DNA of 64,000 bases from Streptosporangiales bacterium (GTDB lineage: Bacteria > Actinomycetota > Actinomycetes > Streptosporangiales > WHSR01). Of this stretch, positions 1 to 10,741 are shown one piece after another. The stretch lies in assembly GCA_009379995.1 (NCBI GenBank), contig WHSR01000009.1, positions 997-64,996 of the forward strand, in the 5' to 3' direction. The position numbers were made by a program, and so were the translations under genes. Below the pieces are notes generated by a model. It saw only the letters and a program-made list of their open reading frames with translations. It did not search any database and was not told the DNA's origin. The number at the start of each line of letters is the position of its first letter. Position 1 is the first letter of the stretch.

Positions 1-2
1 TG

Positions 3-350
3 ATCACGCCTACCCTACTGCTCGGGGCCGCCCCTTCGTGTAGCTGCTCGGAGGGTCCCCGCATCCCCGAGACCAAGGCTGTCGGCAAGGACGACTGTTA
101 CTCCAAGCCGTCCAAGCGAGACAAAGCGAAGAAAGCCAAGGAAAACGAGTTCAAGCGGTTCGCCACCCGCGAGGACGCGATCAAGGCGGCGAAGAAGGAG
201 CGGAACGACTATGTACCGGGCAGAGCCCGATACCGTGGGCCATGCCGCCGCGGCGGACATGTTCACCTGGACATTCGTAACAAGGCAAGGACTCGGGTCA
301 TCAAGACGATTCATTATGAATGGCCGGGCCACACCAAGGAAGGATGCTAG
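3..350 (+). CDS. 3' end of an ORF entering from upstream of the window. Basic C-terminal module (..RYRGPCRRGGHVHLDIRNKARTRVIKTIHYEWPGHTKEGC*), candidate toxin-type C-terminal domain
   Basis: Frame 3 is open from base 3 to TAG 348-350 with no start codon, so it is absent from the ORF track. GC3-rich codons. The stop directly abuts ATG 351 of a small acidic ORF. Confidence 0.4.
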   Translation: MTPTLLLGAAPSCSCSEGPRIPETKAVGKDDCYSKPSKRDKAKKAKENEFKRFATREDAIKAAKKERNDYVPGRARYRGPCRRGGHVHLDIRNKARTRVIKTIHYEWPGHTKEGC

Positions 351-641
351 ATGGTAGTGCACCGGGATCTACGGGAGATCGCAGAGGAGTTCGTGATCCC
401 CGCACTGCGGAAGCACGCCGCCGACGCCGAACAGTACCGGGAGCAATACGTCCCCGAGCCCGGCACCGGCGAATGCGAAGCGACTGACGACGGAATCGAA
501 TTGATTATTCCGGCCATGGACGAGCTGGCGTCCGCGCTGCGAGCCTACGGGGAAGCATTTTCTGAGCGCACCGGTTGGCGTGCCCCGTTCGACATACCCG
601 AGCAAGAGGAAGAAGACGACGAGGAGGATGAGGAGGACTAA
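351..641 (+). CDS. Small acidic protein (96 aa, C-terminal EEEDDEEDEED tail), candidate immunity/antidote partner
   Basis: ORF track 351..641. ATG immediately follows the upstream TAG (tagATG). No family recognised. Confidence 0.5.
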   Translation: MVVHRDLREIAEEFVIPALRKHAADAEQYREQYVPEPGTGECEATDDGIELIIPAMDELASALRAYGEAFSERTGWRAPFDIPEQEEEDDEEDEED

Positions 642-1036
642 TAGGGACCGTAGTAGTACCGGTAATCGGGGTGGTCGCAGTAGACGGCGGTGATCTCGGT
701 GACGGCGTCTGCCCAGGCGTCTCGGATTCCGGCGAACAGATCTGATCGGTCGGTCTCCCATGCCATGGCACCGCCCAGGTAGTGCTCCAGGATCTGGCGT
801 TTGGCTTCGACCTCGCGCAGGGCCCGCTTCGGGTCCGGCGCGTGATGCGCCGCGTGGTGGTCATCTATGAGCCGGTCGTTGAGGAAGCACACCTGCTCGG
901 CCACCTCGCTCGTCTCGAAGGCCCGCAGCCACGGAGCGGCTCGCCGTGGCGCCTCGATGCGTCCGGCTCGGAGAAGCTTTTCGAAGTCCAGATGCCGGCC
1001 TTGTCGAAGGAGCTTCTCGACATCCACGTCGGTCAT
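638..1036 (-). CDS. DUF6221-like hypothetical protein
   Basis: Tail of ORF 638..1144. Internal ATG at 1036 (MTDVDVEKLL). The ..DPKRALREVEAKRQILEHY..DHPDYRYYY pattern resembles the actinobacterial/phage DUF6221 family, recalled from memory. Confidence 0.5.
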   Translation of the reverse strand: MTDVDVEKLLRQGRHLDFEKLLRAGRIEAPRRAAPWLRAFETSEVAEQVCFLNDRLIDDHHAAHHAPDPKRALREVEAKRQILEHYLGGAMAWETDRSDLFAGIRDAWADAVTEITAVYCDHPDYRYYYGPY

Positions 1037-1140
1037 CGGCGCGTCTTTCTTCTGTCGTTTCTGGTTGGGTGTCGTGGGTAGCCCGCAAGGCCGTGCTCGG
1101 CCCTCACATTGCAGGCGCATTCCGGCTGCCAGCCGGGCTC

Positions 1141-1404
1141 TCACGGACCAGCCCCGAGATCGAGACGGGTGATGTCGGTGCGCACTTGGCAGATGCGGAC
1201 GTCACCTGACACGCCGTCCACGGCGCGTAGCCAACCGGTACGGCCGAGCGTCTCGTTGACCCAGTCCATCGTGGCCTTCCAGTCGCCCTTCGCCGGATAG
1301 CCGGCGGCATCGAGGCGAGCCCGGCGGGCCTGTTCGATGTGTGCCAGCACCCACAGCGGCTCATCCCCGGACGGATCCAAGATCAGATAGTGACGGTAGT
1401 CCAC
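1141..1404 (-). CDS. Hypothetical protein (87 aa)
   Basis: C-terminal part of ORF 1141..1683. GTG 1404 is preceded by GGAGGGAGGA. Only this part looks coding (MDYRHYLILDPSGDEPLWVLAHIEQ..). Confidence 0.5.
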   Translation of the reverse strand: MDYRHYLILDPSGDEPLWVLAHIEQARRARLDAAGYPAKGDWKATMDWVNETLGRTGWLRAVDGVSGDVRICQVRTDITRLDLGAGP

Positions 1405-1483
1405 GCCTAGTCCTCCCTCCGCGTCGTCGCGGTCGACTTGTGACGGAACGTCTGTCGCAGCTCCGCGGTCGGGGCGTCGCCGG

Positions 1484-1891
1484 TCACGAGCCCATCCCTC
1501 GCTCCGCGAAGCTGGCGATCTTGACGGCAGCACGAGCCGCATCGGTGGCCGGGTAGCTATAGGGACTGCAAGATCGTCGGAACTGACCCCACGCGTAACG
1601 CCACCGGTACACGGGACGGCCGTCCTCCACGCGAACGGCAACCGGCAGACACCACACGATCTCCGGGCCGCGCCGAGTCTCAATCAGGATGCAGGGCCCC
1701 CAGGACACCCCTCCCCAGTCCACCGTGGACCGAATGCCCAACCAACCCAGCTCGTCGGCCAGCTCAACCAGCCGGGCGTGCGCCCACCGTTGGACATGTT
1801 GGTGACGAAGCTCGGCAGCCTTCGCCCGCTCGTCCACGACGATCACATCAGCCATCGCCCGTCTTGGAGTCGGAGATCCGCCGTTGCTCAT
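1484..1891 (-). CDS. Small hypothetical protein, member of a window-internal paralogue family (with 60616..60895 and 61836..62261)
   Basis: ORF track, alternative start at 1855 (MADVIVV). Shares the pattern helix(L..LA.ELG)-strand-(V.V..DG...Y.W)-..D..A..IA with the two other small genes. Divergent from an XRE-TPR regulator. Confidence 0.55.
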   Translation of the reverse strand: MSNGGSPTPRRAMADVIVVDERAKAAELRHQHVQRWAHARLVELADELGWLGIRSTVDWGGVSWGPCILIETRRGPEIVWCLPVAVRVEDGRPVYRWRYAWGQFRRSCSPYSYPATDAARAAVKIASFAERGMGS

Positions 1892-2032
1892 GGCTGGCTC
1901 CTGAAACGCGGTCGGTTACTGAGGAATCAGCCAACCGCCCAGCTCAGAGGAGTGCCAGAGCGCCGATGCGGCACGTATGTGGCACGAATGAAGCACCGAG
2001 CACGAGAAGGTGCCAGCTCCGGCTAGCGCGGG

Positions 2033-2049
2033 GCTACCGTGGCGGTAGC
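2033..2049. promoter_or_regulatory. Perfect inverted repeat GCTACCG-tgg-CGGTAGC just upstream of the XRE regulator start
   Basis: Read directly from the sequence. The GCTA(G/C)CGTG core recurs at 2022, 60921 and 62287. Confidence 0.35.
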
Positions 2050-2062
2050 GGAAGGGAGGGCC

Positions 2063-3479
2063 ATGGCGCGGCGCCGGTTGCGGCTCATCCAGCGACGCAA
2101 GACGGTCGGCTATACCCAAGAGGAGCTGGCCAACTTGCTTGGCATGGAACGCTCGACCGTAGTGCGCTGGGAAAAGGGACAGACCGAGCCGCTGCCGTGG
2201 GTACGGCCGGGCCTGGCGGGCCTGCTCAAGTTAAGCGCGGACGAACTCGACGCCCTGCTTAACGATGTCACAGTGGTCGCCGGAGGCGATGAGGCCGCCG
2301 CGCCTGCCGCACCGACACTTCTTGACTTCTCGCTCACCTCTGACGAGACGGTGAGTGTCATGGAGCAATTCTCGGCGCGCGACCTGGCCAGCCGTCGCCA
2401 GGTGTTGGCAGAACTATCGGTCCTGACCGGTGACGCCTTGCTTCGGTCGGTTCGGTCATGGGTGGCGTCACTGCCGTCTGGCGAAACTCATGCCGAGGTT
2501 GGCTTCGACGAAGTAAGCCAGCTCGAAGAGGCCGTGAAGCTCTTTCGTCGGTGGGATGCGTCTGGCCTTGGCGGCCTGCAGCGCAAGGCCGTCGTCGGCC
2601 AGCTCAACGCGATGACCGAAACTCTAAATGAACGTCGCTCACCAGCGATCAGGCAGCGACTCTTCAGCATTACCGCCGAACTGGCGCAACTCAGCGGTTG
2701 GATGGCGTACGACCAGGGGCTGTATGGCGTAGCTCAGCGCTATTACATGCTCGCCCTGCACGCTTGCCGCGAGTCGGCCAATTCCGAGCTGGGCGCCAAG
2801 ATTATCGGCGACATGACGCAGCTCTCCACTGCGCTCGGCCACTACGACGACAGCCTGTCGTTCGTGCACACAGCGCTCTACAGCCTGCCGCGCGGCAGCA
2901 ACCCGCTGGTACGTTCCGAGCTGCTTGGCTTGGAAGCACGCGCCTACGCGCACCTCGGAAGGAGCGAAGCCGCCAACGCCGCCCGCTCGGGCGAAAGCTG
3001 TGTCGAGGTCTACCACGAAGGCGCCGTCGAGACTCGGCCGGACTGGATTCACTACATGAACCAGGCCGAGGTGGACTGCCTCGCCGCCAATACGTACATC
3101 GAGCTGGCCCTGCACGAAACCGATGCGACAAGAACCAAGCGCTATGCCGCTCGAGCAGAGCACTACACCACTAACGCCTGTGAGCGCCGCGGCGAGCTCT
3201 ATACCCGCAGCCGCATATTTTGATGAGGTCCGCCTGGCCAAGGTGCGCCTGGCCCAGCGCGAGCCTGACGAGTCCGTCGGAGTCGGATTGCGTTCGCTCT
3301 CGCTTGCTCAAGGTGCGCGCTCATCACTGATTGTTGATTGGCTGCTGCGCTTCGATGCCGAACTACAAGCGCGCTACCCGAAGGTGAGATCCGCACGACA
3401 GTTTCACGACCAGCTCACCGCCTACGTTAGGAAAGCGGCGCCGCGAAAGGAAGGCAACCTCCGTGGTTCCGGAACTTGA
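2063..3479 (+). pseudogene. XRE-family HTH + TPR-like transcriptional regulator, frame broken at T-run 3218-3221
   Basis: MARRRLRLIQRRKTVGYTQEELANLLGMERSTVVRWEKGQ.. HTH. ORF ends ..TRSRIF-TGA at 3223. The expected continuation (F)DEVRLAKVRLAQREPDES..QFHDQLTAYVRKA runs in the frame of ORF 3123..3479. Removing one T restores a single ORF. Confidence 0.7.
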
Positions 3480-4023
3480 GTTCCGCACCCTCGACGGCGA
3501 GCAGGCCAGGCGGCATCTTGACGAACTCAGCACCCTCTACCTCGAGGTCTACGCGGAGCCGCCGTATGAGTGGGGCGACGAACACGCCGCGCTGTTCCGG
3601 GAGCGCTTCGAGGTGCAGCGTCGGCAGGACGGGTTCAGGCTGGTCGAGGCGCGGGTAGACGGCACGCTCGTGGGTGTTGGCTTTGGCGTCACGCTGCGAT
3701 CCTCCTCGCCGTGGTGGCAGAACCTGCTCACCCCGCTGCCGGAGCAAGTCACGCGTGAGTACCGGGGTCGCACCTTTGCCGTAGTGGAACTCCTCGTACG
3801 CGCACCGTGGCGTCGGCGGCATATAGCCAGCACCATTCACGATCTGTTGCTTGCCGACCGCCCCGAGGAACGCGCCACGCTCACTGTGCTCCCAGAAGCC
3901 ACCGCCGCCCAGGCCGCCTACCGTAAGTGGGGATGGCGGAAGGTAGCACAGAAGCGGAATCCACTGCCGGGGTCGCCGGTGTTCGATGTGATGGTGAAGA
4001 GGATCCCGCAACCTGAACGCTGA
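3463..4023 (+). CDS. GNAT family N-acetyltransferase
   Basis: ORF track. Typical actinobacterial GNAT layout (..FRLVEARVDGTLVGVGFG.. / ..VELLVRAPWRRRHIASTIHDLLL..). Confidence 0.8.
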   Translation: MVPELEFRTLDGEQARRHLDELSTLYLEVYAEPPYEWGDEHAALFRERFEVQRRQDGFRLVEARVDGTLVGVGFGVTLRSSSPWWQNLLTPLPEQVTREYRGRTFAVVELLVRAPWRRRHIASTIHDLLLADRPEERATLTVLPEATAAQAAYRKWGWRKVAQKRNPLPGSPVFDVMVKRIPQPER

Positions 4024-7899: not shown

Positions 7900-8475
7900 A
7901 TGGCCATGGGACCCCAACCCCAGACCGCCGGCCCGGCGGTCGGCGACGTGGCACCGGACTTCACCCTGCGCCGCACCTTCGACGAGTCCGTCGACCTTGG
8001 CCGGCTGCGCGCGGACGGGCCGGTTCTCGTCCACTTCTATGTCTTCGACTTCGGCGGGATATGAACGCCGGAGCTGTCCCAGTTGGGACGGTTGACGGAG
8101 GAGATCCGGTCCCTCGGCGCCGGCATCGTGGCGATCGCGGTGACGGCGATCTTCTCCCAGCAACGCTTCGCGCGCGAACTCGGCGTCGACTTCCCCCTCC
8201 TCTCGGACTGGAATGGGGACGCCTGTACGAGTTACGGGGTTCGCTACGACGTCTGGAAGGGCCACAAGGGCCTGGCGAAGCGCTCGGTGTTCGTCGTCGA
8301 CCCCGTCGGCGTGATCCGGTACAGGTGGGTCACTGACGACGCCAACGAGGTTCCGGACTTCGGACCGGCAATCGACGTCCTGCGCACCCTCGGCGCACCC
8401 TCGGCGCACCCTCCGAGGGCGACACCTCCTCCCGATGACGACACGGATATCCCAAAAACCGTCGATGACATATGA
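7900..8475 (+). CDS. AhpC/TSA (AhpE/Bcp-like) thioredoxin-fold peroxiredoxin with in-frame TGA (8062-8064) at the catalytic Cys position. Candidate selenoprotein, or a nonsense pseudogene.
   Basis: ATG 7900 ..VGDVAPDFTLR..PVLVHFYVFDFGGI-TGA-TPELSQLGRLTEEI..AKRSVFVVDPVGVIRYRW. The upstream part and ORF 8083..8475 are in the same frame. Confidence 0.6.
8068..8098 (+). other. SECIS-like RNA hairpin immediately 3' of the in-frame TGA
   Basis: CCG-G-AGCUGUCCC-AGUU-GGGACGGUU-GA-CGG. Upper stem is 9 bp including G-U pairs. The apical-loop GU is at nt 21-22 counted from the U of UGA. Confidence 0.4.
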
Positions 8476-8505: not shown

Positions 8506-10034
8506 ATGAGCGGCGTGATCGCGCCGAAGGGTTCCCTGGGCACCGAGACGGTGACGAGGGGCCTGCTCATCGGGGGTGAGGAGGTCCCGGCCGCCTCGGG
8601 GCGACCCTGCCGGTGCACAATCCCGGGCACGAGGTCGCACGGGTCGCGGCGGCGGGTCCGGAGGACGTCGACCGGGCGGTGGCCGCCGCGGACGCGGCGT
8701 TTCGATCGGGGAGCTGGAGCGAGCTGCCGATCGCGGGGCGGGCACGCGTCCTCAATCGCTTCGCCGACAACATGGAGCGCCGCATCGAGGAGTTGTACCG
8801 GCTGGAGACCCTCTACAACGGCCGGCCGATCGCCGAGACCAGGGCGCAGATCGCCCGGCTCCCGGAGTGGTACCGCTACAACGCGGCCCTCCTGCTCGCC
8901 GACCGAACGGCGGTCATTCCGATGCCGGGCCCGTACCACTCCTACACGGAGCGGTTTCCCCTCGGCGTGGTCGGGATCCTCTCGTCCTTCAACCACCCGC
9001 TGATGATCGGCTCGAAGAGCCTGGCACCCGCGCTTGCCGCCGGCAACAGCGTCGTACTCAAGCCGTCCGAGCAGACGCCGATGACGAGCATCGTCCTCGG
9101 CGAGATCGCCGCCGAGTCCGGCTTTCCCCCGGGGGTCTTCAACGTCGTCCAAGGACTCGGACCGGTGGCCGGGGCTGCCCTCGCCGAGCACCCGGCGGTC
9201 GCGAAGGTCACCTTCACCGGCGGCACGGAGGCGGGCCGCACGGTCGCGGCCGCCACGGCGAAGCGGTTCGCCAAGGTCACCCTCGAGCTGGGCGGCAAGA
9301 GCCCGGTCCTCGTCTTCGCCGACTCCCCGGTCGAGGAGGCGGCGCGTGGGGTGGCGTTCGCCGGCTTCATCGGGGCCGGCCAGACCTGCATCGCGGGCAC
9401 CCGCGTGCTCGTGCAGCGGGAGATCCACGACGCGTTCGTCGACGCGCTCGTGACGCAGGCCGAGCGCATCCACATCGGCGATCCGGCCCTGCCGGAGACG
9501 CAGCTCGGCCCGGTCATCTCGGCACGGGCGAAGGAGCGGGTGCTGAACTACGTCGAGCTGGGGCTCGGCGAGGGTGCGCGGCTAGCGGCCGGCGGCGACG
9601 CGCCCGACGTGCCGGGCTGCGAGGGCGGCTTCTTCGTTCGCCCGACGGTGCTCACCGGTGTCCGCAACTCGATGCGGGTCGCCCGCGAGGAGATCTTCGG
9701 TCCGGTGCTCGTCGTGGTGGAGGTCGACGACGAGGCGGACGCGATAGCGCAGGCGAACGACTCGCCGTACGGCCTCGGCTCGGCGATCTGGACCCGGGAC
9801 GTGGCACGCGCCCATCGAGTCGCCGGCCGGCTGACACACGGGATCGTCTGGGTCAACGACCACCACCGGCTCGACCCCGCGTCACCGTGGGGCGGGGTGC
9901 GGGACAGCGGCGTCGGCAGGGAGAGCGGCTGGGAGTCGTTCCACGACTTCACCCACGTCCGCGCCGTCACAGTCCGGACGGCGCCCGACGAGGTCGACTG
10001 GTACGGCCGCGCGAACGTGGATCGGCTGAACTGA
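8506..10034 (+). pseudogene. NAD(P)-dependent aldehyde dehydrogenase, N-terminal about 33 codons in a different frame (break at G-run 8598-8601)
   Basis: ATG 8506 with GAGGAGG RBS gives MSGVIAPKGSLGTETVTRGLLIGGEEVPAASG. The ALDH body (..LPVHNPGHEV..ELGGKSP..GQTCIAGTR..) continues in the frame of ORF 8613..10034. One extra G restores ..AASGATLPVHNP.. Confidence 0.8.
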
Positions 10035-10741
10035 TGGCCGAGGGGTTGCGGCTCTCCCAGCCGGACGACGGCGTCGTCCGGGCGACCATCGACCGCGGCG
10101 AGGAGAACCTGCTGACCGGACAGATCTGTGACGAACTCGCCGCCTTCCTTCGCGAGCCGCCGTCCGATGCCCACGTCCTGGTGCTCGCGCCGCGCGGACC
10201 GAACTTCTGCCTCGGCCGGGAACGCCGGGCGAAGACTGTCGCGCAGCTACGCGAGGAGGTCGGCGCGCTCGTCGCGCTGAACCGGGCGCTGCGCACGACC
10301 CGGCTCGTGACGGTGGCGCAGGTGACCGGCGGCGCGGCGGGGTACGGCGTCGGGCTCGCCGCGCTCTGCGACGTGGCCGTCGCCGCGCCCTCGGCGCGTT
10401 TCTGGTTCCCGGAGGTCGACATCGGCCTCGCGCCGGCGGTCGTACTCGCCTGGCTGCCCCGGCTGGTCGGGAGCAAGCAGGCGTTCCTCCTGACCGCGAG
10501 CGGCCGGAAGATCTCCGCTGTCCAGGCGGCGGAGATCGGCCTGGTCACCATGGTGGCTCCGGCCGACGACGCGCTGGAGCAGACTGTGCGGGACGAGGTG
10601 GCAGCCCTGAGGAAACACAGCAGTCGGGTGCACGGCGAGATCAAGGCGTTTCTTCGGGCGGGCGAGGACCTGAGCGAGGACCAGACATACGACCTCGCGG
10701 TCGAGAAGCTGATCCTCGCCTCGGTGGAGCGAACGGCATAA
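10034..10741 (+). CDS. Enoyl-CoA hydratase/isomerase (crotonase) family protein
   Basis: ATG overlaps the ALDH stop (ATGA-type, 10032-10036). Tail of ORF 8576..10741: MAEGLRLSQPDDGVVRATIDRGEENLL..GGAAGYGVGLAALCD.. Confidence 0.85.
   Translation: MAEGLRLSQPDDGVVRATIDRGEENLLTGQICDELAAFLREPPSDAHVLVLAPRGPNFCLGRERRAKTVAQLREEVGALVALNRALRTTRLVTVAQVTGGAAGYGVGLAALCDVAVAAPSARFWFPEVDIGLAPAVVLAWLPRLVGSKQAFLLTASGRKISAVQAAEIGLVTMVAPADDALEQTVRDEVAALRKHSSRVHGEIKAFLRAGEDLSEDQTYDLAVEKLILASVERTA

Follow-up and report, generated by a model that had tools for sequence, protein, structure and literature searches.

Selenocysteine-Containing Peroxiredoxins in Bacteria

Bacterial peroxiredoxins that contain selenocysteine (Sec) and carry a SECIS element within the open reading frame are an established and well-known class, described by Zhang et al. 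(2006) and by Peng et al. (2016), the latter reporting 91 Sec-peroxiredoxins in 78 organisms. These proteins belong to PF00578, with PrxU as their prototype and TxxU at the active site, and the longer motif PxxxTxxU has been described as highly conserved and crucial in them (PMC13188914). A Sec trait has also been published for at least one acidimicrobial lineage. In the Geodermatophilaceae, a tRNA-Sec with the anticodon CUA is reported together with TAG at the Sec sites of selenoproteins (Santesmasses et al. 2017, PMC5330540, citing Mukai et al. 2016), and the same report includes an 'AhpC' selenoprotein of Blastococcus saxobsidens DD2 that has a Sec-TAG codon and a bSECIS element.

The window analyzed here is the whole stretch of 64,000 nucleotides from a Streptosporangiales bacterium MAG. 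The gene at 7900-8475 of this window is predicted from comparative evidence to encode a selenoprotein peroxiredoxin in which an in-frame TGA serves as the Sec codon and is accompanied by a recoding hairpin, a reading to which we assign a probability of about 0.9. The same interpretation had been the main reading of the initial annotation, a Sec codon with a SECIS element in a peroxiredoxin fold, and it is now supported by conservation, selection and hairpin covariation. The predicted protein shares with the described Sec-peroxiredoxins the AhpC/TSA fold, Sec at the peroxidatic position and a conserved Arg, as well as a bSECIS hairpin located within the ORF shortly after the UGA. In contrast, their PxxxTxxU motif reads VFDFGxxU in the present family, and the family resides in aerobic soil Actinomycetota instead of the Clostridia or Deltaproteobacteria known for Sec-peroxiredoxins and PrxU.

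Reading Frame and Position of the In-Frame Stop

Translation from ATG 7900 to TGA 8473-8475 proceeds in one frame with a sole break at TGA 8062-8064, and either ATG 7900 or ATG 7906 may serve as the start codon. This CDS (7900..8475, plus strand) has 191 codons including Sec55 and is assigned as a putative Sec-containing AhpC/TSA (BCP/AhpE-like) peroxiredoxin based on translation, Pfam, alignment to PDB entries and in-frame orthologues in 74 genomes. When Cys is put in place of the stop at residue 55, PF00578 (AhpC-TSA) matches residues 14-141 with 85 bits against a cutoff of 26, unbroken across the stop. The peroxidatic Cys (CP) of solved BCP peroxiredoxins (2cx3, E = 8.7e-22; 2ywn) aligns with the stop column. 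Both the single AhpC/TSA frame and the location of the TGA at the catalytic Cys column, as first annotated, are thereby confirmed, and the codon at 8062..8064 (plus strand) is the candidate UGA Sec codon for residue 55, the CP position, a column occupied by TGA or TAG in orthologues.

Two features ahead of the stop, a Gly in place of the usual Thr and an ATA codon directly preceding the TGA, had been pointed out as caveats and are indeed present in the sequence; they prove to be conserved traits of the family, not signs of decay. The ATA codon lies at 8059-8061, and among the 76 family sequences 17 of the 20 Ile residues at this position are encoded by ATA, a rare codon, in comparison to a control Ile column elsewhere in the family where ATC is used in 49 of 55. 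Val before Sec uses GTA five times. This ATA/GTA bias suggests a nucleotide-context preference immediately upstream of the Sec codon.

Selection was estimated separately for the two halves of the gene against its three closest relatives (loci L003-L005). For the 40 codons before the stop, dN/dS is 0.10-0.21 at dS values of 0.76-1.22, and for the 90 codons after the stop it is 0.18-0.21. The similarly low values upstream and downstream indicate that both halves are translated and constrained.

Codon Usage at the Predicted Selenocysteine Column Across Relatives

With each GTDB species represented by one genome, the scan returned 80 loci, and the codon for residue 55 was located in each. The comparison set consists of 82 related loci, 76 Sec forms with at least 53% identity and 6 Cys forms, the hosts of the Sec forms being 74 species-representative genomes and one metagenome contig. 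In every locus the N-terminal part of the protein (...GPVLxxFYVFDFG..) is found in frame upstream of the stop. TGA occupies the column in 70 loci, with approximately 37 from Acidimicrobiia and approximately 19 from unclassified Actinomycetes or Actinomycetota; further hosts are Streptomycetales, Propionibacteriales, Nitriliruptorales, Mycobacteriales and Streptosporangiaceae MAGs, along with a few bins labelled Chloroflexota, Chthoniobacterales or Verrucomicrobiales. TAG is found in six loci (five distinct) from Geodermatophilus sp. YIM 151500, G. africanus, G. ruber, a Geodermatophilus MAG and Blastococcus sp. CT_GayMR19, and the downstream hairpin is unchanged in these loci (GAGCUGUCCCAGUUGGGAC). 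Cys codons, TGC or TGT, appear in the six most distant loci only (38-44% identity), which belong to Thermoplasmata and Methanomassiliicoccales archaea and a Gemmatimonadota MAG; Cys is absent from this column in all close relatives.

The initial annotation had proposed an examination of orthologues at this column, with Cys in all close orthologues and no conserved hairpin as the outcome that would speak against Sec. The opposite was observed, as TGA or TAG is present in 76 of 76 relatives at 53% identity or more and the hairpin is maintained by compensatory changes. Judged from these codon counts and the published Geodermatophilaceae anticodon, the stop codon of the family tracks the tRNA-Sec anticodon of the host, being TGA or, in Geodermatophilaceae, TAG.

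One Verrucomicrobiales MAG contains two paralogous Sec forms (L057 and L065), both of which keep Pro at residue 48 (FYPFDFG). The other bins with non-actinobacterial labels that contain a Sec form are one of Chloroflexota (L006) and one of Chthoniobacterales (L019). The occurrence of Sec forms in these bins could be due to horizontal transfer or to binning contamination.

A Conserved bSECIS-Like Hairpin

In the bSECIS model, for which E. coli fdhF is the classical example, the apical loop has 3-9 nt and the upper stem 4-16 bp, a G lies within the first two loop positions and is usually followed by G or U, the Sec codon is separated from the apical loop by 16-37 nt, and the folding energy is -7.5 kcal/mol or lower (PMC13188914). 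The candidate bSECIS apical hairpin of the window spans 8072..8093 on the plus strand, with the 5′ arm AGCUGUCCC at 8072-8080, the loop AGUU at 8081-8084 and the 3′ arm GGGACGGUU at 8085-8093. It begins 8 nt after UGA 8062, has 9 bp with an energy of -13.2 kcal/mol, and places the G and U of the loop at nucleotides 21 and 22 from the U of UGA; the hairpin and the loop position described in the initial annotation were thus both recovered.

The element agrees with the bSECIS consensus in loop, stem, G, spacing and energy. The loop has 4 nt and the stem 9 bp in the window, with stems of mostly 5-9 bp in relatives, and the loop sequence A-G-U-U (columns 23-26) is invariant in all 76 sequences. The spacing is 16 nt (8065-8080 in the window), equal to the lower bound of the model, in the window and in all 72 relatives that pass, and the median energy for the family is -8.7 kcal/mol. 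A bSECIS evaluation, likewise proposed at the outset, places the window and 72 of the 76 family members within the published limits; the remaining 4 of 76 fall outside them when a strictly contiguous stem is demanded. The family differs from the consensus in having its spacing at the lower limit and in lacking a conserved bulged U or lower stem. An extension of the stem by CCG/CGG pairing (8068-8070 with 8096-8098), also part of the initial description, is present in the window and absent from the family consensus fold. This extension was dropped as part of the element, since the unbiased consensus fold gives the apical helix only.

Considered as a single sequence, the hairpin has a fold z-score of -2.56, with 3 of 200 shuffled sequences folding equally well. 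Hairpins that pass the bSECIS limits also follow 154 of the 1216 TGA trinucleotides (~13%) of the window, which has ~70% GC, and 4 of its 22 genuine TGA stops. The hairpin is therefore real yet only moderately unusual and is by itself not decisive; its significance derives from conservation across 76 sequences and not from the chance level for a single sequence. An Rfam scan of the whole 64-kb window at gathering thresholds returned no matches, and a permissive scan of 8030-8140 returned chance-level hits only, to PhotoRC-I (E = 0.052, minus strand) and a snoRNA. Bacterial SECIS elements are reportedly poorly covered by Rfam models.

Constraint at the RNA level is evident in the codons that form the hairpin. 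The Ser at position +5 from the Sec codon is encoded by TCC in 60 of 61 sequences, compared to a control Ser column with TCC in 31, TCG in 16, TCT in 7 and TCA in 1. Gln+6 is CAG in 76 of 76 sequences, and Leu+7 is TTG in 67 of 67, a codon that is otherwise rare and occurs at other Leu columns in 2-4 of 39-70 sequences (3-10%). Gly+8 uses GGA or GGG instead of the usual GGC. The covariation score of the hairpin is 0.184, as opposed to 0.133 ± 0.009 for shuffled alignments, none of 500 of which reach this score, and it also exceeds the score of every slid register. Double changes are found at five of the eight stem pairs. Folds of individual sequences give 5-9 bp stems under an AGUU, AGUUG or AGUUC cap and include the compensated stems GCUCC/GGAGC, GAUCC/GGGUC, GACCC/GGGUC and CUCUCCC/GGGGGAG, as well as a change of CUG..CAG to UUG..CAA. 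Synonymous sites within the hairpin are frozen, and changes in the stem are compensatory.

Variant Active Site and Comparison with Known Peroxiredoxins

Residue counts in the 82 sequences reveal a variant lead-in to the active site, V48-F-D-F-G52 (8041..8055, plus strand), in place of the canonical PxxxT. At residue 52, canonically Thr, all 76 Sec forms have Gly and all 6 Cys forms have Thr. Residue 48, canonically Pro, is Val in 74 of the 76 Sec forms and Pro in 2, with Leu (3), Val (2) and Pro (1) among the Cys forms. The resolving Cys of BCP proteins at CP+5, residue 60, is retained in 5 of 6 Cys forms, and in Sec forms it is replaced by Ser (61 sequences) or else by Ala, Thr or Ile. Arg128 (8281..8283, plus strand), the conserved catalytic Arg of peroxiredoxins, is invariant in the 76 Sec and 6 Cys forms. 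Residue 109 is Cys in 34 of 76 Sec forms and 1 of 6 Cys forms, and was dropped as a resolving Cys for the family on the basis of this count. Membership in PF00578 is indicated by the score, the peroxidatic Cys/Sec position and the catalytic Arg, while the PxxxTxxC motif of the family is not found in the Sec forms, which have neither the Thr/Ser (Gly instead) nor, in most cases, the Pro (Val instead). The CxxxxC pattern with the resolving Cys of BCP/PrxQ proteins is also lacking in the Sec forms. Because the canonical active-site Pro and Thr are missing, peroxidase activity is put forward as a prediction.

The best matches of solved structure are BCP/PrxQ proteins of Aeropyrum pernix and Sulfolobus (2cx3/2cx4, 2ywn, 3hjp) and AhpE of M. 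tuberculosis (1xvw, 1xxu), with E values from 8.7e-22 to 2e-15 over approximately 145 residues. These BCP/PrxQ and AhpE proteins have Cys with a Pro/Thr lead-in, whereas the Sec forms have Ser at CP+5 and Gly in place of Thr; the Cys-form relatives keep the CxxxxC arrangement of BCP in five of six cases. The protein belongs to neither PrxU nor Prx-SUH: the match to the PrxU equivalog (NCBIfam NF040737) scores 44.5 bits against a cutoff of 270, and that to the Prx-SUH thiol peroxidase selenoprotein (NF045827), which has CxxU where the present family has GxxU, scores 31.1 bits against 298. The AhpC/TSA-fold selenoprotein entries in the review catalogue have the motifs TxxU, UxxC/UxxU, UxxS, CxxU and UxxC, and GxxU is absent among them (PMC13188914).

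A described protein comparable to the family is the 'AhpC' selenoprotein of B. saxobsidens DD2, which is alike in its AhpC/TSA type, Geodermatophilaceae host, TAG Sec codon and following bSECIS. In the present set, Blastococcus sp. CT_GayMR19 and four Geodermatophilus genomes have TAG at the Sec column with the same hairpin as the rest of the family. B. saxobsidens was not among the named matches of the second protein search and cluster look-up, in which Blastococcus sp. CT_GayMR19 and Geodermatophilus species were named, and the published TAG-Sec 'AhpC' probably belongs to the present family. That description concerns one gene, and in its consulted part the TGA forms across the family, the motif and the conservation of the hairpin are not described (PMC5330540).

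The family has the signature FYVFDFGxxU-xxELSQLG, and its members come from 74 or more GTDB species and form upwards of 600 protein clusters. We tentatively propose, as a possibility somewhat short of even odds, that it constitutes an uncatalogued subfamily of Sec-dependent peroxiredoxins in which the Pro, the Thr and the resolving Cys were lost with the change from Cys to Sec and in which the stop codon follows the anticodon of tRNA-Sec. One reading of the loss of Pro and Thr is that a selenolate may function without the customary activation network. There appears to be no wide record of how broadly the subfamily occurs, of its variant active site or of the truncated form in which it is uniformly mis-annotated.

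Proposed Decoding and Catalysis

In the proposed mechanism, the AGUU loop, 16 nt from UGA 8062, would be presented to SelB carrying Sec-tRNA(Sec), and the UGA would be read as selenocysteine instead of stop to give a full-length protein of approximately 20 kDa. Sec55 would then attack the hydroperoxide to form a selenenic acid, assisted by the conserved Arg128. With Ser60 in place of the resolving Cys and no conservation of Cys109, an external thiol reductant would probably recycle the selenenic acid, as in a 1-Cys/AhpE-like ('1-Sec') cycle.

For the Streptosporangiales MAG, the search for Sec machinery covered its 64-kb window. ARAGORN identified no tRNA in this window and three tRNAs in the flanks of the related loci, none of which is tRNA-Sec. 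With E. coli queries, tblastn gave no match to SelA or SelD in the window or in the 82 loci and their flanks (~1.3 Mb), and matches to SelB were confined to the GTPase domain, probably representing other translation factors.

Annotation of the Family in Sequence Databases

Homologues numbered 213 in one protein search and 606 at E <= 1e-20 in a second. Almost all are annotated as proteins of 96-126 aa that start with '(M)SQLG...' or 'LGQ...', right after the stop column. A fragment that starts just after an in-frame stop is the usual signature left by gene callers at a selenoprotein gene. GenBank, RefSeq and JGI label the truncated products, of about 103-133 aa, as 'redoxin domain-containing protein' or 'peroxiredoxin', and the annotated protein of the window is MQA84035.1 (Streptosporangiales bacterium). 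The only 'full-length' homologue, P0002 from JGI, has W at the column where the DNA codon is TGA. Its source is locus L001 (JGI contig Ga0634764_1680865), in which the TGA at 406-408 was translated as Trp, apparently through an alternative genetic code; the P0002 protein is full-length yet wrong at the catalytic residue.

Genomic Neighbourhood

The neighbours of the gene are ordinary and include genes for CorA, an EEP nuclease, an HpcH aldolase, an ALDH, an enoyl-CoA hydratase (ECH) and an ABC ATPase. The first 4000 nt of the window (1-4000) have a GC content of ~64%, compared to 67-74% elsewhere in the window. The ALDH gene directly downstream (8506-10034, plus strand) is frameshifted near 8597-8600: the frame of 8506 encodes the first 33 aa and that of 8613 the remainder (Pfam Aldedh, 524 bits), a break consistent with the loss of one G from the run TCGGGGCGACC. 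This frameshift may have arisen through an assembly or homopolymer error, or it may mark a true pseudogene. In its 3′ tail, the peroxiredoxin ORF contains 2.9 copies of an 11-nt unit (GCGCACCCTCG) repeated perfectly in tandem at 8382-8413, and one copy fewer would shift the frame and end the ORF at approximately 8433. The C-terminal tail in the window (…GAPSAHPPRATPPPDDDTDIPKTVDDI) exceeds that of homologues in length and is not part of the conserved domain; its length may result from duplication of the repeat. The frameshift and the repeat together point to some defects in the assembly or genome.

The pair of ALDH and enoyl-CoA hydratase genes (8506-10741 in the window) accompanies the Sec-peroxiredoxin gene in no fewer than ten further loci (L003, L004, L005, L009, L014, L017, L025, L044, L053 and L062). 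The order is Prx-ALDH-ECH in the window and ALDH-ECH-Prx, back to back, in L014, L017, L025 and L044, and a double-ATPase ABC gene is also located near the Sec-peroxiredoxin gene in several loci. Speculatively, the Prx-ALDH-ECH linkage may represent a functional module, for example for handling aldehydes derived from (lipid) peroxidation.

Alternative Explanations for the In-Frame Stop

Downstream RNA structures are able to stimulate read-through of stop codons, and the hairpin could act in this manner with a near-cognate standard tRNA inserting Trp, Cys or Arg and with no involvement of Sec, which would accord with no Sec machinery being seen within the 64-kb window of the MAG. This mode of read-through would, however, give different residues at UGA and UAG at a catalytic position that is strictly conserved, and UAG variants are restricted to the clade that has tRNA-Sec(CUA). 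The loop sequence, the position of the G and the 16-nt spacing fit the bSECIS model, and distant homologues carry Cys, the usual counterpart of Sec, so that read-through by a standard tRNA is considered very improbable.

It is also very improbable that the TGA is a true terminator, with a C-terminal 'redoxin domain' protein of ~103-133 aa produced alongside or without a 54-aa N-terminal peptide and the hairpin acting in coupling or re-initiation. PGAP, JGI and other pipelines do call such ORFs (MQA84035.1, WP_135138429.1), but the called starts vary among homologues (CTG, TTG and others, with products of 96-114 aa), and alignment to 2cx3 indicates that the C-terminal fragment would be without the active-site strands and helix. 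In addition, both halves are in one frame without exception and the break falls exactly at the catalytic residue.

The main alternative raised in the initial annotation was a nonsense pseudogene, in which a TGC-to-TGA change inactivated a Cys-peroxiredoxin in the MAG and the hairpin is fortuitous. The nearby defects, a 1-nt frameshift in ALDH and the 11-nt tandem repeat in the tail of the gene, can be cited in its favour, as can the 13% of TGA trinucleotides in the window that precede hairpins passing the bSECIS limits. This explanation is rejected as highly implausible: a stop is kept at the same column in all 76 sequences that share 53% identity or more, which span many actinobacterial orders, and independent recent stops at orthologous positions are not plausible given this phylogenetic breadth. 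It is further contradicted by the dN/dS of 0.10-0.21 upstream of the stop, the conservation of the hairpin with compensatory changes and the lack of any close relative with Cys. The clade-specific switch from TGA to TAG would not be expected from a pseudogene, a split gene or near-cognate read-through. Finally, a host code with TGA as a sense codon (code 4 or 25), as could be read from the W that JGI put at the Sec codon of the L001 homologue, has a negligible probability and is rejected for the window, because TGA ends 22 of its 31 confident, high-GC3 ORFs, which argues against global reassignment of TGA, and because the hosts are high-GC Actinomycetota.

Implications

Interpretation of the gene as a Sec-peroxiredoxin has consequences for annotation, since protein databases lack both the catalytic half and the Sec residue, and the selenoproteome of soil Actinomycetota is consequently under-counted. 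The division of the family into TGA and TAG forms provides independent comparative support for the recoding of UAG as Sec in Geodermatophilaceae, and may amount to a natural experiment confirming Sec at this position. The family would be almost exclusively Sec-containing while lacking the Pro and Thr that are regarded as essential in peroxiredoxins, and so would offer a useful natural setting in which to ask how Sec alters peroxidase chemistry.
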